Source: a virus (Duplodnaviria > Caudoviricetes). From it: 64,000 nt of DNA. The notes under the pieces were generated by a model, which had not been told where the DNA came from, made no database searches, and saw only the letters and a list, made by a program, of their open reading frames with translations. Made by a program: the position numbers and the translations under genes. The stretch lies in IMG/VR virus record IMGVR_UViG_3300023174_003901, positions 64,001 through 128,000 of that record, one strand, 5' to 3'. The number at the start of each line of letters is the position of its first letter. Within the stretch, counting starts at the first letter, position 1. Below, one piece after another: positions 35,203 through 47,427 of this stretch.

Positions 35203-35231
35203 AAAAAAATAGGCTCCGAAGAGCCTATTTT
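35203..35231 (-). terminator. Intrinsic terminator after tmRNA (possibly bidirectional)
   Basis: aaaataggctc-ttcg-gagcctattttttt. Confidence 0.85.
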
Positions 35232-35570
35232 GGTGGTTTCTGTTACGAGGTATTTCCTACCCTAGGCGGCTGTTAAGCGGCCAATGCGAACTGTTCGTCG
35301 TTTGCTTTTACGTTTTTTGTTGTCTTCGGCCAGGAACTCCCAACCCTACGGCTTCCACATTGCCGAGCGCCATTACCCCTACTCTTTGCCCTGTCGAAAC
35401 TATGCAGGCCCATCAAAAAAAGAAATGTAATATGATGACAAATATTAATAGTGTTATTACTACTACATCACATGTTCTACATTTGTCCATAACATATCCT
35501 CTTTTGGTGGACCTGGGGGGATTCGCACCCCCGTCCAGAACACTTTTCTTGATAACAGTTTACGCTGTTT
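35232..35570 (-). ncRNA. ssrA: Circularly permuted (two-piece) tmRNA; acceptor piece ends CCA at 35505, coding piece starts 35411; tag ANDEQFALAA* at 35305-35273
   Basis: GGGCCUG/CAGGUCC-A-CCA acceptor with G3:U70; T-arm GGGGG-UGCGAAU-CCCCC; 3' half upstream of 5' half; canonical tag. Confidence 0.92.
35413..35490 (-). CDS. Candidate 25-aa membrane micropeptide in tmRNA intervening segment (MDKCRTCDVVVITLLIFVIILHFFF)
   Basis: AGAGGA RBS; ORF fills the intervening segment and stops 2 nt before the coding piece. Confidence 0.45.
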   Translation of the reverse strand: MDKCRTCDVVVITLLIFVIILHFFF

Positions 35571-35579
35571 GAGTATTTA

Positions 35580-35873
35580 TTATTGATAAATCACTACGTC
35601 TTGGAAGTCTTCACCGTTGACACAGAGTGCGTATTCACGTTTGGCATTATAGCCTTTCTTTAGCACAACCATACCGTCTGCTGTGGTAAAGATTACTTTG
35701 GTACCAATGGTCATACGACCTAGACCCAATTCTCTACGCTCAAATTCAGGATCGTTCATGATCTTGCCACTGCCAAAATCAATACCGTTGTAAACAGCAG
35801 GCACTCGCTCGCCGTTGACCAATAGTACGTATTGGCTGTTTTTGACTAACTTGCTAGGGATAATCTTACGCAT
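35580..35873 (-). CDS. Hypothetical early protein
   Basis: 97-aa ORF, AAGGA RBS, TATAAT upstream. Confidence 0.7.
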   Translation of the reverse strand: MRKIIPSKLVKNSQYVLLVNGERVPAVYNGIDFGSGKIMNDPEFERRELGLGRMTIGTKVIFTTADGMVVLKKGYNAKREYALCVNGEDFQDVVIYQ

Positions 35874-36850: not shown

Positions 36851-36926
36851 TGGTGCCCCCTCCAGGTTACGCTCCTGGCTTTCAGGATTTTCAGTCCTGC
36901 ACTTTCACTAGATTAGTTTAAGGGGC
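36851..36926 (-). tRNA. tRNA-Phe(GAA)
   Basis: Cloverleaf, CCA, variant T-loop AGCGUAA. Confidence 0.9.
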
Positions 36927-36929
36927 AAC

Positions 36930-37004
36930 TGGCGGGTCCTGCAGGAATCGAACCCACATCTCCAAGTTCGAAGCATGGCATTCTATCCATTGAACTAAAG
37001 ACCC
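36930..37004 (-). tRNA. tRNA-Arg(UCG)
   Basis: Cloverleaf, CCA. Confidence 0.9.
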
Positions 37005-37012
37005 ATAAGTAA

Positions 37013-37717
37013 ATGATGACAGAATTCATATACACCTTAATCGCAACACACATCACCATAGCATGTGTTACACTGTACCTGCATCGCGGACAAGCACATC
37101 GATCAGTGACGTTTCATCCTGTGATCGAACACTTTATGCGAGCCTGGCTATGGCTCACAACAGGCATGGTCACCAAGCAATGGGTGGCCATACACCGCAA
37201 GCATCACAGATACAGTGATCGAGCCGGTGACCCACACTCACCACATGTGTATGGGATTGGGCAGGTATTTTTTAAAGGAGCGATGTTATATCATGCGGCA
37301 TCAAAAGATAAAGATATGGTTAGTACATATGGTCGTGGCACTCCTGCTGATTGGGTGGAGCGCAACATATACACTCCTCACAGTAGACTTGGCATTGGCC
37401 TGGTCCTTGTGTTCAACACCTTGATATTTGGTTGGTGGGGTATACTCGTCTGGGGCATTCAAATGATCTGGATTCCACTCTGGGCCGCGGGAGTTATCAA
37501 CGGCCTAGGTCATTGGGCAGGATATAGGAACGGAGAAACTCGTGATCTCAGTCGTAATCTTGTGCCTTGGGGCATTGTGGTTGGCGGTGAGGAACTACAC
37601 AACAATCATCACCTGGATCCGGCTAGTGCTCGCCTTAGTAGGCGTTGGTGGGAGTTTGACATAGGTTGGATGTATATCTGCATCTTTAAGAACCTAAGAT
37701 TGGCCACTGTCAAATAA
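37013..37717 (+). CDS. Membrane fatty acid (acyl-CoA/lipid, delta9-like) desaturase
   Basis: His boxes HRGQAH, HRKHH, HNNHH; TM segments; WWEFD. Confidence 0.9.
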   Translation: MMTEFIYTLIATHITIACVTLYLHRGQAHRSVTFHPVIEHFMRAWLWLTTGMVTKQWVAIHRKHHRYSDRAGDPHSPHVYGIGQVFFKGAMLYHAASKDKDMVSTYGRGTPADWVERNIYTPHSRLGIGLVLVFNTLIFGWWGILVWGIQMIWIPLWAAGVINGLGHWAGYRNGETRDLSRNLVPWGIVVGGEELHNNHHLDPASARLSRRWWEFDIGWMYICIFKNLRLATVK

Positions 37718-37718
37718 T

Positions 37719-37792
37719 TGGTGCTCTCACCGGGTAACGATCCTGGGTTTCTACATTACCAATGTAGTGTAATGCCTTTATACTATGAGAGC
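37719..37792 (-). tRNA. tRNA-Thr(GGU)
   Basis: Cloverleaf, CCA, T-loop AUCGUUA. Confidence 0.9.
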
Positions 37793-37799
37793 AATGAAA

Positions 37800-37983
37800 T
37801 AAAGAAAGCACTACCTGATGTTTAAGGGTGCGGAATACATGTCTGCACTCCCTTCCCTCCAGCAACATGACACGACTGTGACTGGCAGTCTACCGCGGCT
37901 TTCGCCCGTTCAGAGGCGCTGGATCTAATAAGGTCCCTGGTAGTTAGGCCCATAGTCAATGAGTTTCTAACACGCTTTCTTTA
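37800..37983 (-). ncRNA. Candidate ~184-nt structured RNA
   Basis: 12-bp closing stem (2 G-U pairs on minus strand), GAAA tetraloop hairpin, more stems. Confidence 0.5.
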
Positions 37984-37990
37984 CTCAACT

Positions 37991-38011
37991 TGGAGCGGGA
38001 TATTATCCCGC
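37991..38011 (-). pseudogene. tRNA acceptor-stem minihelix/remnant
   Basis: GCGGGAU-AAU-AUCCCGC-U-CCA. Confidence 0.45.
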
Positions 38012-38017
38012 ATTGCT

Positions 38018-38107
38018 TGGCGGAACGTTAGGGAGTCGAACCCTATCAGCGGCTCGTCACCACCGCGGGATTAGCAATCCCGTGCCTTACCATCCGGCCC
38101 ACGTTCC
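38018..38107 (-). tRNA. tRNA-Ser(GCU)
   Basis: Long variable arm, CCA. Confidence 0.92.
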
Positions 38108-38115
38108 TCTATGTA

Positions 38116-38144
38116 ATTATACTGCAATCAATCTCTGTTGTCAA
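38116..38144 (-). promoter_or_regulatory. sigma70-like promoter inside tRNA array
   Basis: TTGACA-N17-TATAAT. Confidence 0.85.
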
Positions 38145-38147
38145 TTC

Positions 38148-38223
38148 TGGAGCGGAAGGCGAGATTCGAACTCGTCTATTTCAGTTTGGAAGACTGACGT
38201 GTAACCCAAAACACTTCATCCGC
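38148..38223 (-). tRNA. tRNA-Gly(UCC)
   Basis: Cloverleaf, CCA. Confidence 0.88.
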
Positions 38224-38230
38224 GGTTGTT

Positions 38231-38707
38231 CTATGCTGCCTTGCTCAGTACCCAGTCAAGTCTGTCTGCGGCATAACTTGCGGCAAACGCTCGAGGTTTG
38301 ACCATGGGGATCACATTGCAAGTGCCTTTGATGTAGCCAATGGCTTGATTGACCACTATACTAGACTTGTGCATTTGATCAGGGTTAATGTCAAGGTGAA
38401 CTTCTACTAGTCGATCTTCCAGCACATCTGCCAGGCGCTGAAACAATTCACTTACCTTGTACACTTCGTTCATGAGTCTCATGCTGGGTCTATCGCTACG
38501 TTGATCCCAGTCTTGTTCTCTCACAACTTCTCCAAAGATTTTGCAACCATGGCAACTGTCAATGTGTACCACAACGGCCAGAGCATAGTCAGCGTACCAA
38601 CGTCCATTGACTTTGACACGTTCACTATCACAGCCGAGGTAAACAGCAGTTTCTGGACTTTGTGCATCAATATAGGCTTTGACTTGGTCTAGATCAAGTT
38701 TTTTCAT
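38231..38707 (-). CDS. RNase H-like YkuK (DUF458) family protein
   Basis: YLGCDS..EVHLDIN..KP.AFAASYAAD. Confidence 0.75.
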   Translation of the reverse strand: MKKLDLDQVKAYIDAQSPETAVYLGCDSERVKVNGRWYADYALAVVVHIDSCHGCKIFGEVVREQDWDQRSDRPSMRLMNEVYKVSELFQRLADVLEDRLVEVHLDINPDQMHKSSIVVNQAIGYIKGTCNVIPMVKPRAFAASYAADRLDWVLSKAA

Positions 38708-38731
38708 ATTTGCTTTCTTTTATTTATAGAG

Positions 38732-38806
38732 TGGTCCGGCTAGCAGGAATCGAACCCACATTCATCGGGTAGAAGCCGACGGTATTATCCATTATACTAT
38801 AGCCAG
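38732..38806 (-). tRNA. tRNA-Arg(UCU)
   Basis: Cloverleaf, CCA. Confidence 0.9.
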
Positions 38807-38972
38807 AATAAATAGGATTATGAGATTTGACAACGAACACGGCATTGAAGCATTGTACCAAGTGGCTGCCGAGGGGGTGTATCAAGAACACTGGTTCTCT
38901 ACTGTACGCAGAGACTTTGTGATTGATCCTCAGTTGATAAATCCCCTACGTGAATTTTGTTTAGACACTACA

Positions 38973-39056
38973 TGGTGCAAGCACCCGGAGTCGAACCGGG
39001 ATGCCATAAGCGGTGAATTTTAAGTCCACTGGGTCTGCCGATTCCCCCATGCTTGC
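38973..39056 (-). tRNA. tRNA-Leu(UAA)
   Basis: Variable arm, CCA. Confidence 0.9.
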
Positions 39057-39059
39057 AAT

Positions 39060-39135
39060 TGGTCTCCGATGAGAGATTTGAACTCCCGCTTCATGGTCCC
39101 AAACCACGGGTACTGCCAGGCTATACTAATCGGAG
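39060..39135 (-). tRNA. tRNA-Pro(UGG)
   Basis: Cloverleaf, CCA. Confidence 0.9.
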
Positions 39136-39374
39136 TTGATTCTTTGCTTGATCCACATGCCAAACAACGTGCCACAGTAGGCACCTAGCAGGGCTGGAAT
39201 CAAGGCCCAATGATCTGCTGTGTAGTTGATCACCGCCACACTGGCAGTAAAGGTCACTGCTACTGACCACCATGCGGCCATCATTGGGCGATTGTCTTGT
39301 ATTGATCTCACAAAGTATACGTAGATCAAGTCAGTGGCAAATACTGCAAAAAAAGTCACAACATAATCTAGCAT
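39126..39374 (-). CDS. Small membrane protein
   Basis: 82 aa, three hydrophobic segments; last 10 nt overlap tRNA-Pro 5' end. Confidence 0.65.
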   Translation of the reverse strand: MLDYVVTFFAVFATDLIYVYFVRSIQDNRPMMAAWWSVAVTFTASVAVINYTADHWALIPALLGAYCGTLFGMWIKQRINSD

Positions 39375-39388
39375 ACAAACTTTCTAGA

Positions 39389-39462
39389 TGGTGCCCCTAG
39401 AGAGAATCGAACTCCCGTCCTCGGATTACAAAACCGATGTTCTGCCATTTAACTATAGGGGC
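39389..39462 (-). tRNA. tRNA-Thr(UGU)
   Basis: Cloverleaf, CCA. Confidence 0.9.
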
Positions 39463-39466
39463 TGAT

Positions 39467-39540
39467 TGGATGCGGGGGACAGATTCGAACTGCCGATGCA
39501 CCTGGCTTATGAGACCGGTGTGGTGACCTCCCTCCCCGCG
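39467..39540 (-). tRNA. tRNA-Met(CAU), initiator-like C1:A72 mismatch, degenerate D-arm
   Basis: CGCGGGG/CCCCGCA, loop CUCAUAA, CCA. Confidence 0.75.
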
Positions 39541-39544
39541 GTAA

Positions 39545-39697
39545 TTAACTTGGAATAATATGTGGAATATACGGAACTGCTCTTGGACCACCGTATTGTT
39601 GTTCAAAAAGTTTTTTAGCCTCTTGCGGTGTTGCCGCATAGATACGCTTCTTTTCTTCACCTTGTGGTGTTCTCACAGTTGTTTCATACATTGGCAT
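39545..39697 (-). CDS. 50-aa hypothetical protein (MPMYETTVRTPQGEEKKRIY..)
   Basis: GGAG RBS; hand-translated; not in ORF track. Confidence 0.7.
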   Translation of the reverse strand: MPMYETTVRTPQGEEKKRIYAATPQEAKKLFEQQYGGPRAVPYIPHIIPS

Positions 39698-39717
39698 ATA
39701 ATTCTCCTAATATAATG

Positions 39718-39937
39718 CTCTGCGTCCCTCGGCGGTAATTATATCGCATCAGAAATTTCGTCAAGTTGCCCCAACTAGTCTATTCATCACGCACGACCTC
39801 CACCCGCTTCCCGACAGGGACCGTTCTCGTATTGCTAACGCCGGTTGAGGCTAGACCGCAGTATTGCTACTGTGAAGATTCAACTCTTCAGAACCGCCCG
39901 TGTGTGTCATCACACTTCTCATCCTCCGGGACCAGAG
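39718..39937 (-). ncRNA. Candidate ~220-nt structured RNA
   Basis: Closing stem cucug-guccc/gggac-g-cagag; hairpins gaaga/ucuuc, cagu-agcaau-acug, aguug/caacu. Confidence 0.55.
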
Positions 39938-39959
39938 TATCCAGTGACGCTGGAACGTT

Positions 39960-40037
39960 TGGAGCACTGGGCTGGATTTGAACCAGCGACTTTACGGATT
40001 TGCAATCCGTTGCATTGGACCTCTCTGCCACCAGTGC
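39960..40037 (-). tRNA. tRNA-Cys(GCA)
   Basis: Cloverleaf, CCA. Confidence 0.9.
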
Positions 40038-40056
40038 GTTGTTTCTATTTACATGT

Positions 40057-40085
40057 ATTATACACAATTATCTATTGTGTGTCAA
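40057..40085 (-). promoter_or_regulatory. sigma70-like promoter inside tRNA array
   Basis: TTGACA-N17-TATAAT. Confidence 0.85.
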
Positions 40086-40159
40086 TGGTACCTCGTGACA
40101 GAATCGAACTGCCGTAACCGCCGTGTAAAGACGGAGTTCTACCATTAAACTAACGAGGC
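40086..40159 (-). tRNA. tRNA-Val(UAC)
   Basis: Cloverleaf, CCA. Confidence 0.9.
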
Positions 40160-40162
40160 AAG

Positions 40163-40250
40163 TGGTGGAGGTAGATGGATTTGAACCACCGAGGCCCCGT
40201 AGGGCGCAGGATTTACAGTCCCGTGCAATCGACCGCTATGCGATACCTCC
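40163..40250 (-). tRNA. tRNA-Tyr(GUA)
   Basis: Variable arm, CCA. Confidence 0.92.
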
Positions 40251-40258
40251 GAATTTTT

Positions 40259-40333
40259 TGGTGGACCGTCCTGGGTTCGAACCGGGGACTGAGGCTTGCA
40301 AAGCCACTGTGTTCCCAACTATACCAACAGCCC
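40259..40333 (-). tRNA. tRNA-Ala(UGC)
   Basis: G3:U70, CCA. Confidence 0.9.
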
Positions 40334-40340
40334 AAATTTT

Positions 40341-40414
40341 TGGCGACTCGTGATGGAATCGAACCACCGCTAGAAGTTTTGGAGACTTCCGCACTGCCAC
40401 TATACTAACGAGCC
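40341..40414 (-). tRNA. tRNA-Trp(CCA)
   Basis: Cloverleaf, CCA. Confidence 0.9.
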
Positions 40415-40420
40415 ATATCT

Positions 40421-40498
40421 TGGTGCCCTAGGAGAGACTCGAACTCTCAAAACCTGGTTTCTAAGACCAGTACGTATACCAAATTCCGTCACCAGGGC
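40421..40498 (-). tRNA. tRNA-Leu(UAG), short variable loop
   Basis: 78 nt, anticodon loop CUUAGAA, CCA. Confidence 0.85.
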
Positions 40499-40508
40499 AA
40501 AACTATCT

Positions 40509-40583
40509 TGGTGGATGAGAGTAGAGTCGAACTACCACTTGACTCCGTATGAAGGAGGCGCACTACCATTATGCTACTCATCC
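40509..40583 (-). tRNA. tRNA with CAU anticodon (elongator Met or Ile2)
   Basis: Loop UUCAUAC, CCA. Confidence 0.8.
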
Positions 40584-40587
40584 AGTT

Positions 40588-40664
40588 TGGGGTGCCTGAT
40601 GGGATTCGAACCCACGCATATCGGAATCACAACCCGAGGTCTTAACCACTTGACGACAAGCACC
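40588..40664 (-). tRNA. tRNA-His(GUG)
   Basis: G-1:C73, CCA. Confidence 0.92.
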
Positions 40665-40765
40665 ATATAGAAACACACTGCTGATATCAGGCTAACGTTA
40701 TGACATATTGGGTTTACTGCCGTATTCCCAGGCTACTCATAAACTCGCCACAATGTGTTTTTATA
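40665..40765 (-). ncRNA. Stem-closed RNA cassette A
   Basis: uauaaaaacacauug/cagugugUuucuaua closing helix exactly filling the gap between tRNA-Lys and tRNA-His. Confidence 0.5.
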
Positions 40766-40955
40766 TGGTAGGACCGCCGAGATTCGAACTCGGGATTGGC
40801 AGATTAAAAGTCTGCTGTGATACCGCTTCACCACGATCCCTTACTTTGCATGATCGACGAACTGCTTTGTTTGTCTTTCGATGGCTACCCGCTTTTCTTT
40901 TCAATGCCAATGCAACGAAGGAGTTACGTTGCTTGACGGTCATCTTGCGTTTCAT
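40761..40955 (-). CDS. Lys/Arg-rich small ORF that reads through tRNA-Lys on the same strand
   Basis: GGAG RBS; MKRKMTVKQR..; stop lies just after the tRNA CCA. Confidence 0.45.
   Translation of the reverse strand: MKRKMTVKQRNSFVALALKRKAGSHRKTNKAVRRSCKVRDRGEAVSQQTFNLPIPSSNLGGPTI
40766..40840 (-). tRNA. tRNA-Lys(UUU)
   Basis: Cloverleaf, CCA. Confidence 0.9.
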
Positions 40956-40973
40956 CGCATTCTCCTTAAAAAT

Positions 40974-41047
40974 TGGTACCCCCGGGAGGTAACGCTCCTC
41001 CGATTGCCGCTTATCAAGCGGCTGTTATACTTTTTAACTAAAGGGGC
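40974..41047 (-). tRNA. tRNA-Ile(GAU)
   Basis: T-loop AGCGUUA, CCA. Confidence 0.85.
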
Positions 41048-41049
41048 GT

Positions 41050-41124
41050 TGGTGCCTTTGTATGGAATTGAACCACAATCGCCGGCTTCGTAGACCAGTG
41101 TATTATCCATTATACTACAAAGGC
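41050..41124 (-). tRNA. tRNA-Arg(ACG)
   Basis: Cloverleaf, CCA. Confidence 0.9.
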
Positions 41125-41128
41125 AAAT

Positions 41129-41204
41129 TGGCTCCCCAGCGTGGGATCGAACCACGGACACCTTGATTAACAGTCAAGTGCAACTACCGCTGTGCTACTG
41201 GGGA
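41129..41204 (-). tRNA. tRNA-Asn(GUU)
   Basis: Cloverleaf, CCA. Confidence 0.92.
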
Positions 41205-41215
41205 ATAAAAAGGGA

Positions 41216-41276
41216 GAAGCCACGGTTGCAGGATCTAGTGCCTTTTGCAAGGGAAGTATCCAGGCGATGTGGCTTC
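41216..41276 (-). ncRNA. Small stem-closed element
   Basis: Perfect 8-bp gaagccac/guggcuuc closing stem. Confidence 0.3.
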
Positions 41277-41285
41277 AAAAAAACT

Positions 41286-41360
41286 TGGCGGTCCCAAGGG
41301 GTAACGATCCCCTTCTTCGAGCGTGACAGGCTCGTGTGCGTCCATGAACACTTTGAGACC
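41286..41360 (-). tRNA. tRNA-Asp(GUC)
   Basis: T-loop AUCGUUA, CCA. Confidence 0.9.
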
Positions 41361-41361
41361 A

Positions 41362-41518
41362 AGATATTATAGTCAAGCACCGAGAATGCCAATTTAGGAG
41401 TCCGGTGCTTCCGTTCCAAAGCCGATGCAGTTATATCAGGATCAGTCGCCGGCCGCTGTGACCCGAATAGTGTTGGCGTCCCAACACGATACCTTATCGA
41501 TGCTTGACTATAACATCT
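41362..41518 (-). ncRNA. Stem-closed RNA cassette D
   Basis: 18-bp closing helix agauguuauagucaagca/ugcuugacuauaauaucu (1 G-U). Confidence 0.55.
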
Positions 41519-41521
41519 AGC

Positions 41522-41591
41522 ATATAAAAACACACTGGACGAGGCGACCCTGTGGCCACAAGTTCCTGCTTATCTCCAGTGTGTTTACATA
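41522..41591 (-). ncRNA. Stem-closed RNA cassette B
   Basis: uauguaaacacacugga/uccagugUguuuuuauau closing helix starting right after tRNA-Glu CCA. Confidence 0.5.
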
Positions 41592-41667
41592 TGGTAGTGG
41601 GTACCGGATTCGAACCGGTGTGAATGCCGTGAAAGGGCACTATCCTAGGCCTCTAGATGAACCCACC
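41592..41667 (-). tRNA. tRNA-Glu(UUC)
   Basis: Cloverleaf, CCA. Confidence 0.92.
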
Positions 41668-41891
41668 ATATGAAAAAACATTTGGGAACCATTGTGGATC
41701 TCTTTCTGCTTGGCTTGCGAGGCCAAGTCACCACGGTCATTACTGCCAGACGATCCGCCGCTTTTCTGGATCTACTTGTTACAGTAGAGAGCCGGCTTCA
41801 TGACTGGTAGTAAGTGGGTACCCGCCGGTACCAATTGGACACTTCTACCAATGCCTCTAACGGGTCTGGTAACCCTAATGTGTTCTCATAT
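41668..41891 (-). ncRNA. Stem-closed RNA cassette C (~224 nt)
   Basis: auaugagaacacauuaggg/cccaaauguuuuuucauau closing helix; internal hairpins gguacc/gguacc, ucuac/guaga, gaucc/ggauc, cuuggc/gccaag. Confidence 0.55.
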
Positions 41892-41976
41892 AGTGCCTGC
41901 GAACAGGACTACATATACGTAATTTTTAAAGATCTCTACAACTGTCTCGATCGACTTTGTTGCTTTGTTAAGTTCT

Positions 41977-42005
41977 ATTGTAGCATCAACCGATTTATTG
42001 GTCAA
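41977..42005 (-). promoter_or_regulatory. sigma70-like promoter inside tRNA array
   Basis: TTGACC-N17-TACAAT. Confidence 0.7.
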
Positions 42006-42037
42006 TGCTGAGTGTTGCGTTTTCACAACAATTGTTT

Positions 42038-42111
42038 TGGCACGGGAACTAGGGCTCGAACCTAGAATGACAGAGTCAAAGTCTGTAGTGTTACCATTAC
42101 ACTATTCCCGA
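42038..42111 (-). tRNA. tRNA-Gln(UUG)
   Basis: Cloverleaf, CCA. Confidence 0.9.
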
Positions 42112-42120
42112 ACAATCCGG

Positions 42121-42209
42121 CGGAAGACGGAGGAGTCGAACCCCATCCGATTTCTCGGAACCTGGTTTTCAAGGCCAGTCGCGGTACCAATACCACTGCA
42201 TCATCTTCC
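42121..42209 (-). tRNA. tRNA-Ser(UGA), 3' end CCG instead of CCA
   Basis: Long variable arm. Confidence 0.85.
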
Positions 42210-42213
42210 AACA

Positions 42214-42297
42214 TGGTACCCTTGGTGAGATTCGAACTCACATATTATACTCCTCTGTTTGAGAGAGGCGACTTTACCAAAATTTGTCCACAAGGGT
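42214..42297 (-). tRNA. tRNA-Leu(CAA)
   Basis: Variable arm, CCA. Confidence 0.88.
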
Positions 42298-42311: not shown

Positions 42312-42480
42312 CCAATGTGTGTATCGAAACACTCTACATGGATGAACCCACTTGCCTCGCGGCCTGAGAATGCTTCGATACGCTGTAATTTTTCACACTA
42401 GAAGAAGTGCTTCATCCTACAGGCCGCCCATTTGCCGGATGTTTTAAGTGCCCAGCAGGGTCTCGTTCCCTACACACACT
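42312..42480 (-). ncRNA. Candidate ~170-nt structured RNA (cassette E)
   Basis: agugugugua/uacacacauu closing stem; internal 8-bp gcggccug/caggccgc. Confidence 0.5.
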
Positions 42481-42488
42481 TTGCGATG

Positions 42489-42644
42489 TTAACGGTTCTC
42501 TTGGAGAACCTCTCGCTTGCTTCGAGCATTGTCATATGCTTGAGCACGTTCTAACTTCTCTGCAATTATCTTGCGAAGATCTTGTTGAGTTAGGGTGTGC
42601 TGTCGCGTAAACTCTGCTTGCCTTTTTAATTTTGTATCTGTCAT
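42489..42644 (-). CDS. 51-aa basic protein, first gene after the attenuator terminator
   Basis: AAGGA RBS; MTDTKLKRQAEFTRQH..; not in ORF track. Confidence 0.7.
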   Translation of the reverse strand: MTDTKLKRQAEFTRQHTLTQQDLRKIIAEKLERAQAYDNARSKREVLQENR

Positions 42645-42662
42645 TTTCCTTGTTCCAAAAAC

Positions 42663-42692
42663 AAAAAACCCTGGAGTTTTTAGTTCCAGGGT
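42663..42692 (-). terminator. Intrinsic terminator (attenuator)
   Basis: accctgga-N9-tccagggt followed by a T run. Confidence 0.85.
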
Positions 42693-42744
42693 CCTTTGAA
42701 GTCTGAGTATGCGGTTGAACTATACTCTGTCTCCTTGGACCCTG
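42687..42744 (-). promoter_or_regulatory. Antiterminator hairpin spanning the leader stop codon
   Basis: cagggucc(42744-42737)/ggacccug(42694-42687) plus inner gaguau/auacuc; sequesters the terminator 5' arm. Confidence 0.7.
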
Positions 42745-42863
42745 ATTCTATCTAATGTGCGACCATTATTCATGCTCTCAATCGCAAACCACAAGGCGGG
42801 GCAGGTGCCCAGACTTAGCGTCGGCTGATAGAGTGATATGGAATAATGTGCGGAATGTTTCAT
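42720..42863 (-). CDS. 47-aa candidate attenuator leader peptide (MKHSAHYSISLYQPTLSLGTCPALWFAIESMNNGRTLDRIRVQGDRV)
   Basis: Starts right after the promoter; all 20 aa; 41 distinct codons of 47; 3' end overlaps the antiterminator. Confidence 0.7.
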   Translation of the reverse strand: MKHSAHYSISLYQPTLSLGTCPALWFAIESMNNGRTLDRIRVQGDRV

Positions 42864-42872
42864 CTTGTGCTT

Positions 42873-42901
42873 ATTGTATAGGTTTATTTATACCTTGTCA
42901 A
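42873..42901 (-). promoter_or_regulatory. Head-of-array promoter: sigma70-like with nested T4 late TATAAATA
   Basis: TTGACA-N17-TACAAT; TATAAATA at 42892-42885. Confidence 0.8.
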
Positions 42902-47009: not shown

Positions 47010-47086
47010 TGGTGCGCCCAACAGGACTCGAACCTGTGACCAATCGATTATGAGTCGACTGTTCTAACCAACTGAACTATAGGCGC
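47010..47086 (-). tRNA. tRNA-Ile2(CAU, lysidine type) likely
   Basis: ileX-like body (UAGUUCAGUUGGUUAGAACA..CUCAUAAU), CCA. Confidence 0.85.
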
Positions 47087-47118: not shown

Positions 47119-47427
47119 TCAAGCCTGTATCCACTTGACCCTATCTCTTAATTCGATGCTTTCAGCACCATCGTATTCATTCACCCGAAAAAAAGTACCT
47201 TCAGGAATCCACTCTATTTTCAATCCCACTATACCACCATCATAGATGCCGGGGTACTTGAGAGTGACATACATCTCTAGTTCTTCATCTTGATTTTTTT
47301 CTACGAATTCAACAATGGCAGGATCAAACAAGATTCCAGGATGCTTGGGATTCCAAGTTGACCAGCCCCCGCCGTATTCGGGCGAGTAAATTACTGCTAC
47401 CCGACCGTCACGGATCAATTTGTTCAC
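47119..47427 (-). CDS. Hypothetical protein
   Basis: 102-aa ORF. Confidence 0.65.
   Translation of the reverse strand: MNKLIRDGRVAVIYSPEYGGGWSTWNPKHPGILFDPAIVEFVEKNQDEELEMYVTLKYPGIYDGGIVGLKIEWIPEGTFFRVNEYDGAESIELRDRVKWIQA

Follow-up and report, generated by a model that had tools for sequence, protein, structure and literature searches.

Amino-acid operon attenuators include the trpL, hisL, leuL, thrL and pheL leaders and the multivalent leaders of ilvGMEDA and thr, while T-boxes are untranslated, respond to the direct binding of a single uncharged tRNA and regulate amino-acid or aminoacyl-tRNA synthetase genes. To our knowledge, leader-peptide attenuation has been described only for amino-acid, synthetase-related and drug-resistance genes, with one or few sensing codons. 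The bmrB leader of Bacillus subtilis bmrCD is reported to be a ribosome-mediated attenuator that senses general translation stress (PMC4191407), and leader open reading frames (ORFs) ahead of antibiotic-resistance genes have been reported for ermBL (PMC8274638) and mef/mel (PMC4335068). Here we analyse a cassette of promoter, short leader ORF and two alternative hairpins, H1 and T, in a 64,000-nt stretch of phage DNA, hereafter the window (bases 64001–128000 of the 200-kb IMG/VR virus record IMGVR_UViG_3300023174_003901). With rather more confidence than doubt, we read this cassette as a ribosome-mediated (leader-peptide) transcription attenuator that controls entry into a phage tRNA array and senses general decoding capacity. 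The further proposal, that the leader is a ‘pangram’ selected for every amino acid and most wobble classes, so that slow decoding of any codon class opens the complete phage tRNA set, seems to us evenly poised.

A leader cassette with two alternative hairpins ahead of tRNA genes

The cassette lies on the minus strand of the window (Table 1). Its promoter, with ATAAATA in the spacer, is followed by an ORF whose end is built into H1: the 5′ arm CAGGGTCC (42744–42737, codons 40–43) pairs with the 3′ arm GGACCCTG (42694–42687), the inner stem is GAGTAT/ATACTC, and the stop codon TAG (42722–42720) lies within the 5′ half of the hairpin. The 3′ arm of H1 overlaps the 5′ arm of the intrinsic terminator T by 6 nt; the T stem is formed by ACCCTGGA (42692–42685) and TCCAGGGT (42675–42668) around the loop ACTAAAAAC and is followed by TTTTTTGTTTTT, the tail being T6GT5 (U6GU5 in RNA). 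All of these parts had been claimed in a preliminary description of the window, which listed a TTGACA-17-TACAAT promoter, a near-leaderless 47-codon ORF with all 20 amino acids and 41 codons, a hairpin with its 5′ side in the end of the ORF and its 3′ arm overlapping the terminator, and an 8-bp intrinsic terminator with a U tract, and each was found.

The record is estimated to be about 58% complete; relatives of its phage are 345–383-kb lake contigs, and the same DNA is present in lake and freshwater metagenomes from about 15 studies. Searching GenBank phages with the region by blastn returned no match, and no close cultured relative was found. Eighty contigs were found via the adjacent phosphoesterase gene (82–94% amino-acid identity), and among these homology persists beyond the phosphoesterase stop only in L016 and L020. 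L016 and L082 are one contig, as are L020 and L083, and L084 carries a near-identical copy of the L016 cassette on another contig. The L016 and L020 copies are 76–81% identical to the window over promoter, ORF, H1 and T, with three indels (6, 6 and 9 nt), all in frame, and with compensatory changes in T. The junction after the phosphoesterase gene (window 42939; the equivalent position in L002–L081) is hypervariable among relatives, holding terminators, different genes or tRNAs, and the leader cassette occurs there in three contigs only; synteny with the phosphoesterase is thus not a feature of the leader family, and the position or arrangement of the tRNA island appears to vary among close relatives.

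Distant copies, on other giant-phage contigs, were first uncovered by a 15-nt pattern taken from the 3′ arm of H1, and together with a protein profile this gave more than 100 IMG/VR loci; matches to 15–16-nt patterns are mostly chance, and blastn was used as a filter. A protein-pattern scan, blind to tRNAs, added 80 IMG/VR loci. Every distant copy comprises one or more sigma70 promoters, a purine-rich leader, an ORF of about 45–50 codons, a stop-containing GGGTCC...GGACCC hairpin and the terminator CCCTAGGATTAAAAACCCTGGGGTTTTTT. The distant peptides align with the window peptide (family consensus MQSNFRHQQFNTMPKQAGVIASNWLSINCGSLSYDRTPEITRVREGWDG), and their profile recovers 179 clusters at 90% identity and 158 at 50%, all annotated ‘hypothetical’, so that hundreds of related phages share the design; searches of Pfam, PHROG, PDB and Rfam gave no match for the leader family. 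The window copy sits in a small side clade (window, L016/L084, L020 and P0095), whose variant occurs in only three further contigs beyond the window, and no second copy of the switch was found in the 200-kb record.

Linkage to tRNA genes holds across the family. Co-oriented tRNAs lie downstream of the cassette in 57/57 loci with enough flank, drawn from 61 unique cassettes, and a gap of 206–1048 nt (median 421) separates T from the first tRNA. The 1.5 kb upstream of the cassette contain a tRNA in 4 loci only, and at 11 distant loci with long flanks every tRNA (up to 33) is downstream of it. The interval from T to the first tRNA is free of promoters with at least 10/12 matches in 43/57 loci; later parts of the arrays have internal promoters. 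Upstream, near-consensus promoters are present in all loci, mostly in tandem at about −186 and −87 (61/61 family loci). These tandem sigma70 promoters about 100 nt apart (for example L186:1314–1446) recall P1/P2 of stable-RNA operons.

H1 and T are mutually exclusive and both covary. Across 63 unique elements, the H1 5′ arm starts 20–33 nt (median 20) before the stop and the 3′ arm 20–35 nt (mean 28.7) after it, with folding free energies (ΔG) of −25.5 ± 2.5 kcal/mol for H1 and −12.6 ± 1.0 for T. The seven outer pairs of H1 are formed in 99.8% of cells, and two of the seven carry compensatory changes: the basal pair is A-U in 46 elements, G-C in 10 and G-U in 4, and there is one change from C-G to U-A. 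The H1 covariation score was reached by 0/500 shuffles, and pairing fell to 15–60% when the partners were slid. The interior of H1 is hypervariable in sequence yet always folds (z = −3.3; 89% of sequences below −2), and the T stem, 8–9 bp long and G+C-rich, has three covarying pairs. The nucleotide after GGACCC pairs with A/G in H1 and with G/A in T and changes in step with both partners, which is the signature expected if both alternative structures are in use. What the preliminary description had anticipated of relatives, namely a kept leader ORF length, covariation in both hairpins and a place upstream of tRNA arrays, is therefore what the family displays: ORFs of 40–53 codons that are always open, compensatory changes in H1 and T, and tRNAs behind the cassette in all 57 contigs.

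Folding agreed with a switch at its two end states. H1 forms and T is absent in the minimum-free-energy (MFE) fold of the free transcript, and T forms when a ribosome footprint is placed on the stop. A ribosome placed at codon 30 gives H1 in the window and L186 and T in L231, and one placed at codon 10 gives H1 in L186 and L231 and T in the window. The ribosome-masked behaviour proposed beforehand was thus reproduced for the free transcript and for a ribosome at the stop, while the early-ribosome folds were mixed.

As an attenuator, the cassette would work as follows. The promoter transcript would carry the short ORF, with its last seven codons and stop within the 5′ half of H1. A leading ribosome that reached the stop would occupy the H1 5′ arm, and the freed 3′ arm would form T, so that transcription would stop short of the 51-aa ORF, the structured RNA and the first tRNAs. 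Were the ribosome delayed in the first 35–40 codons or so, or were there no initiation, H1 would form first, T would be blocked and polymerase would enter the array; H1, twice as stable as T, would win unless a ribosome stood at the stop. This scheme presumes that the leader is translated and that ribosome and polymerase are coupled. Because all 20 amino acids and most wobble classes are encoded upstream of H1, shortage, cleavage or non-charging of almost any tRNA would raise read-through. The switch would then be a negative feedback on tRNA supply, and cleavage by host anticodon nucleases, loss of host tRNA through decay or poor charging might, for example, trigger it.

A further candidate hairpin, H0, joins the Trp codon region with the ‘DRTP’ region of the leader (UGGU..GCGAUU / GAUCGC..ACCA). 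Its pairs are nearly invariant in the family, changes are one-sided only (G-C to G-U), and pairing is broken in L016 and L020; H0 is possibly a pause hairpin, a conjecture that these changes support weakly. RNAalifold and an all-pairs covariation scan found no helix with real covariation inside the coding region.

Table 1 Coordinates of the leader cassette and of the features behind it in the window
Feature	Position	Strand	Description
sigma70-type promoter, TTGACA-N17-TACAAT	42873..42901	−	11/12 matches; unique in the window; conserved in L016 and L020
Leader ORF, 47 sense codons and TAG	42720..42863	−	Homologous to the leader-peptide family
Candidate upstream pause hairpin H0	42753..42791	−	TGGTTTGCGATT (42791–42780) pairs with GGTCGCACATTA (42764–42753)
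Putative antiterminator hairpin H1	42687..42744	−	Present in the MFE fold; ΔG −25.4
Intrinsic terminator T	42657..42692	−	ΔG −12.3; forms only with the H1 5′ arm masked
51-aa basic ORF, probably helical	42489..42644	−	Shine–Dalgarno sequence and ATG start 13 nt past the U tract; no promoter of its own
Conserved structured RNA	42312..42480	−	Read-through only; homology to relatives; no Rfam match
First tRNA block	42038..42297	−	Leu(CAA) 42297–42214, Ser(UGA) 42209–42122, Gln(UUG) 42111–42038
Whole tRNA array, 26 tRNAs	36854..42297	−	Only array in the 200-kb record

Composition and evolution of the leader peptide

All 20 amino acids are present in 151/180 unique family peptides, which average 48 aa, against 29 ± 2.8% (maximum 39%) in a column-shuffle null. 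When representatives less than 50% identical were taken, 100/144 had all 20 and 96% had at least 19, and when members were clustered at 30% divergence, 21/26 clusters were mostly complete. Genomic tiles encode all 20 in 1.9% of cases at 47 aa and 0.8% at 41 aa, and the adjacent small-ORF family uses 14–18 different amino acids, never 19 or 20. The full set is already encoded before the H1 arm in 54/63 elements, in the stretch where a stall would keep H1 available. The rare residues wander: Cys is spread over 19 alignment columns, yet 82% of peptides have a single copy; His, found across 13 columns, and Tyr, found across 15, are missing from no peptide, where absences of 21% and 20%, respectively, would be expected. 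Decoding classes are covered in the same way, with both Leu boxes in 92% of members where 63% would be expected, both Arg boxes in 86% where 38% would be expected, and 26.8 of the roughly 31 half-boxes (NNY/NNR), compared with 20.2 ± 2.5 (maximum 27) in genomic tiles. Such selection on composition rather than position, with all 20 amino acids held in about 41 codons, would be rare, and the 158 clusters at 50% identity with their wandering single Cys, His and Tyr form a clean data set for studying it.

The window leader is extreme at the codon level. Its ORF holds 41 distinct codons as well as all 20 amino acids, and no codon is repeated within its 5 Leu, 3 Ile, 3 Ala, 3 Thr or 3 Gly codons. 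Under a uniform-codon null, 47 draws give 32.9 ± 2.27 distinct codons (P(≥41) about 2e-4), which reproduces the earlier hand calculation of about 33 ± 2.3. An empirical null from 47-codon windows across the whole 200-kb record is stricter, at 28.8–29.4 ± 3 with a maximum of 40 outside the leader ORF, and the leader is the most codon-diverse ORF window of that record, so that a diversity beyond other ORFs, as first claimed, was upheld.

Codon diversity was tried as a conserved trait of the family and rejected. With the amino acids taken as given, the family exceeds expectation in synonymous diversity only slightly (z +0.69 against the uniform null, +1.38 against genome usage), with extremes in the window (z +2.26) and in L208 (41/48 distinct codons), and this diversity is ordinary in the nearest relatives of the window, which have 31/40 and 34/43 distinct codons. 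The 41-codon count is therefore peculiar to the window copy. From these alignments, the selected property would seem to be completeness at the level of amino acids and decoding classes, not the maximal number of distinct codons. The idea of codon sampling put forward in the preliminary description accordingly stands for amino-acid and decoding-class completeness in the family and falls for a maximal distinct-codon count. A strict one-to-one match between leader amino acids and array tRNAs was also rejected, since the L115 leader is without Cys and its array has a tRNA-Cys.

Two leader sites show a coupled swap, ..T-M-P-K..V-I-A-S.. in some members and ..(T/S)-I-A-(K/Q)..(V/F)-M-P-S.. in others; in DNA these read ATGCCC...ATAGCC and ATAGCC...ATGCCC, and Met and Pro are retained either way.

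The leader has been kept as a reading frame throughout. The frame is open in 65/65 unique DNA versions and in 180 peptides, over lengths of 40–53 codons and many length changes, so in the evolutionary sense the ORF would appear to be translated. A non-coding small RNA of about 200 nt, running from promoter to terminator with a fortuitous ORF, would agree with the cassette having its own promoter and Rho-independent terminator, with 3′ hairpins that are conserved while the 5′ part is more variable, and with constraint at the nucleotide level; we think it very improbable, because the frame stays open despite these changes of length, the stop keeps a fixed position relative to H1, selection to keep all 20 amino acids would make no sense if the RNA were non-coding, and no Rfam match was found.

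Evolution within the frame is not that of an ordinary protein gene. Entropies at the three codon positions of the leader are 0.78, 0.71 and 0.79 bits, without periodicity, and its core before the H1 arm differs at a proportion of synonymous sites (pS) of 0.31 and of non-synonymous sites (pN) of 0.185. The next small ORF, compared between the same pairs of loci, has pS 0.68, pN 0.40 and a periodic entropy of 1.10, 0.95 and 1.33. Synonymous sites of the leader core are strongly conserved (family codon columns 13–43; in the window, for example, 42753–42791), the ACA CCA of ‘TP’ being almost invariant, and what is conserved could be a signal for pausing, a site for binding or H0 itself. Subfamilies differ in the frame in which the GGGTCC arm is read within the tail (RV versus GS). 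An open frame, absence of periodicity and constrained synonymous sites would together be the properties of a cis-regulatory leader.

The product might instead be a small protein that acts in trans, such as an anti-defence peptide or a minimal XRE-like helix-turn-helix regulator, in which case T would be a leaky, ratio-setting terminator and H1 a stabilizing or processing hairpin. The family is indeed large and conserved, with a recognizable core that resembles an ‘IS.IE.G.R.P’ recognition-helix region, many members have a purine-rich ribosome-binding region, and weak HTH_19 matches occur. A helix-turn-helix protein as such was rejected, however, as the HTH_19 matches are confined to 4/96 members and lie below the curated cut-off (best E = 0.004), a PDB profile search was empty, and AlphaFold, given the alignment of 96 sequences, reached only a pLDDT of 57 and a pTM of 0.20, with no confident fold. 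A trans-acting protein of any kind also sits poorly with a pN/pS of 0.6–0.8 (1.2 in the tail) without the periodicity seen in the neighbouring small ORF, and with a C-terminal frame that shifts relative to the RNA arm, and it leaves unexplained both the bases that H1 and T share, with covariation to both partners, and the selection for all 20 amino acids. We regard it as unlikely.

The same core raises another alternative on the same switch, in which the leader is an arrest peptide: the core (F/Y-W-S/L-A-I ... D-R-T-P-E) would stall the ribosome on one signal, such as a metabolite, factor or drug, a ribosome parked at DRTP would leave H1 free, and amino-acid completeness would be secondary. 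The W is shared by all of 96 peptides, in which G, I, D, R and P each reach at least 90% conservation; the preliminary description had looked for low amino-acid identity among relatives, which this conserved W...DRTPE core contradicts, albeit that it is conserved largely at the nucleotide level. The motif stops 1–3 codons short of the H1 5′ arm, a position at which a stall would keep the arm free, and the lack of an AlphaFold fold is as expected for a peptide of the exit tunnel. Yet the spacing from W to P varies between 10 and 14 residues, third positions of the motif are as conserved as first and second ones with a pN/pS of about 0.6, which points to constraint on RNA rather than on peptide, the side clade of the window has lost DRTP while keeping H1 and T, and the wandering single Cys, His and Tyr are left unexplained. 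An arrest peptide is, on this balance, decidedly unlikely.

The window copy and the genes behind the switch

The window copy differs from the main family at its 5′ end. Its ATG lies 9 nt past the −10 hexamer, leaving a leader of only about 2–3 nt, and its single promoter abuts the ORF, compared with two promoters in tandem in the main family. The window clade is without a Shine–Dalgarno sequence (duplex −0.7 kcal/mol in the window), while the main family has a purine-rich, weak-to-moderate one (mean −3.5 kcal/mol versus −1.4 for random sequence). Having lost 5′ untranslated region and Shine–Dalgarno sequence, the window clade is less certain to be translated than the main family. L020 has an extra ATG exactly at the predicted transcription start, which suggests true leaderless initiation. 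The DRTP core has decayed in the side clade (GRTL, GSES or GSEP) with H1 and T kept, and the number of amino acids encoded before the H1 arm is 19 in the window (Val occurs only within the arm), 17 in L020 and 16 in L016. The window copy is best seen as a diverged, near-leaderless member whose response may be weaker than, or otherwise unlike, that of the main family.

For the window copy alone, these features may be read as those of a relic, with the ORF barely translated, H1 always forming and T overridden, so that only a constitutive promoter and leader would remain and the 41 codons would be a chance extreme of drift. The weak duplex and the ATG so close to the −10 hexamer, the 16–17 amino acids before the arm in sister copies, the decayed core and the small number of contigs with the variant all fit this account. 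Against it, none of the four variants of the clade has lost the open frame, and the indels of 6, 6 and 9 nt preserve it. Three pairwise comparisons within the clade give the leader a pS of 0.31 and pN of 0.135, whereas the phosphoesterase, compared between the window and L016 or L020, has pS 0.62–0.68 and pN 0.09, so the leader is still under constraint. The extra ATG of L020, suggesting leaderless initiation, and the intact H1 and T with compensatory changes inside the clade also argue against decay. We consider a relic improbable.

Directly past the U tract of T, family members have either the Shine–Dalgarno sequence and ATG of a 48–59-aa ORF or a structured RNA, and the window has both. Homologues of the 51-aa ORF (48–59 aa, with the motif ..HTL(S/T)..(D/E)F.K(L/M)I.EK.ER..) directly follow T in 41 unique loci; no Pfam or PHROG match was found for the 51-aa ORF, which may be the most directly gated product. 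The structured RNA directly follows T in many relatives (‘..AGTGTGTATAGGGAACGCGACCCTGCTGGCAC..GGGCGGCCTACCGGATGG..’), and one lake metatranscriptome is rich in contigs containing it, at depths up to about 315, some of these contigs being relatives’ forms that join T to the RNA. RNA libraries (six runs, small shares) likewise gave contigs of relatives over tRNA-Gln, T and the structured RNA.

Between 42657 and 42005 there is no further promoter, the next one lying after the first tRNA block at 42005–41977, and the directly gated segment thus comprises the 51-aa ORF, the structured RNA and the tRNAs Leu(CAA), Ser(UGA) and Gln(UUG). The preliminary description had delimited the same first block and had cautioned, correctly, that internal promoters at 42005, 40085 and 38144 bypass the switch; such bypass is also seen in 14/57 relatives.

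The array covers all 20 amino acids once Phe-GAA, Ile-GAT and Ser-UGA, found at a lowered ARAGORN threshold, are added. The tRNA-Phe(GAA) and tRNA-Ile(GAT) (36854–36926 and 40977–41047, minus strand) are missed by default ARAGORN and are unusual in their near-identical acceptor stems (GCCCCTT../..GGGGGCACCA) and short D arms. A lone tRNA-Met(CAT) at 47010–47086 (minus strand) has a 12/12 promoter at 47122–47095 and stands apart from the switch, 4 kb upstream of the array; L082 and L084 likewise carry it upstream, and it may be an initiator tRNA kept constitutive. A two-piece (permuted) transfer-messenger RNA (tmRNA) at 35205–35616 (minus strand) is of beta-proteobacterial type (Rfam beta_tmRNA 120 bits, tmRNA_permuted 118 bits; tag ANDEQFALAA), and its type suggests a Burkholderiales-like host.

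Several observations weigh against a general decoding sensor that governs the array. Within the RNA, the equilibrium folds with ribosomes early in the ORF are not uniformly H1, and the constraint on synonymous sites is accounted for by no covarying helix inside the ORF. The conserved W...DRTPE core is not required by a pure sampling model, and, as the Cys of L115 illustrates, the leader set does not always mirror the array. In the window copy itself the Shine–Dalgarno sequence is missing and the leader is about 2–3 nt, and its closest relatives are down to 16–17/20 amino acids before the arm. Little would be gated in L016 and L020, where the next promoter lies within about 60 nt of T, and internal promoters make control of the whole array partial at best. 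RNA-library contigs on the window include none over the leader ORF and no visible transcript ends. Set against the covariation, the composition and the linkage to tRNA arrays in the wider family, these points leave the interpretation first offered for the window, an attenuator at the head of the array, supported.

Comparison with described attenuators

The cassette shares with trp/his-type attenuators a promoter-proximal ORF, an antiterminator 3′ arm that is also the terminator 5′ arm, and downstream genes without a promoter of their own; as in those systems, a ribosome at the stop is predicted to block the antiterminator and an upstream stall to permit it. Apart from the candidate H0, no clear 1:2 anti-antiterminator hairpin exists here, so absence of translation should give read-through and not super-attenuation. 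Unlike trp/his-type leaders, this one has no run of regulatory codons, containing instead all 20 amino acids with the rare ones once each, and its sequence is conserved at the nucleotide level.

Arrest peptides of the TnaC/SecM type have a conserved C-proximal motif at fixed spacing that acts in the exit tunnel; here W...DRTPE is conserved and its end lies just ahead of H1, but the spacing is 10–14 residues, synonymous sites are conserved to the same degree, and the motif is lost in the window clade. With T-box riboswitches the cassette would share a coupling of the state of the tRNA pool to terminator read-through via an antiterminator, as proposed here; the Rfam T-box covariance model matched neither the window region (E ≤ 1) nor three relatives (E ≤ 0.1). 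In the bmrB, ermBL and mef/mel leaders, too, ribosome stalling is reported to lead to terminator read-through without a specific amino-acid signal. Those leaders respond to ribosome-targeting drugs and control transporters or methylases, and none is reported to be selected for amino-acid completeness or to have a tRNA cargo.

If the proposal is right, it would explain how tRNA output is matched to need in phages with large arrays and would link tRNA arrays to host defences that target tRNA. The cassette would also be a compact natural part that reports global decoding capacity, in effect a universal decoding-capacity sensor, and it is directly testable in Escherichia coli because its promoters are of sigma70 consensus. 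A literature search for an attenuator or leader peptide ahead of phage tRNA genes found nothing relevant. Amino-acid operon attenuators control biosynthetic enzymes, whereas the cargo here is viral tRNAs with a small ORF and a structured RNA; what appears to be new is that the run of cognate codons is replaced by completeness, and that the genes behind the switch are a viral tRNA array.

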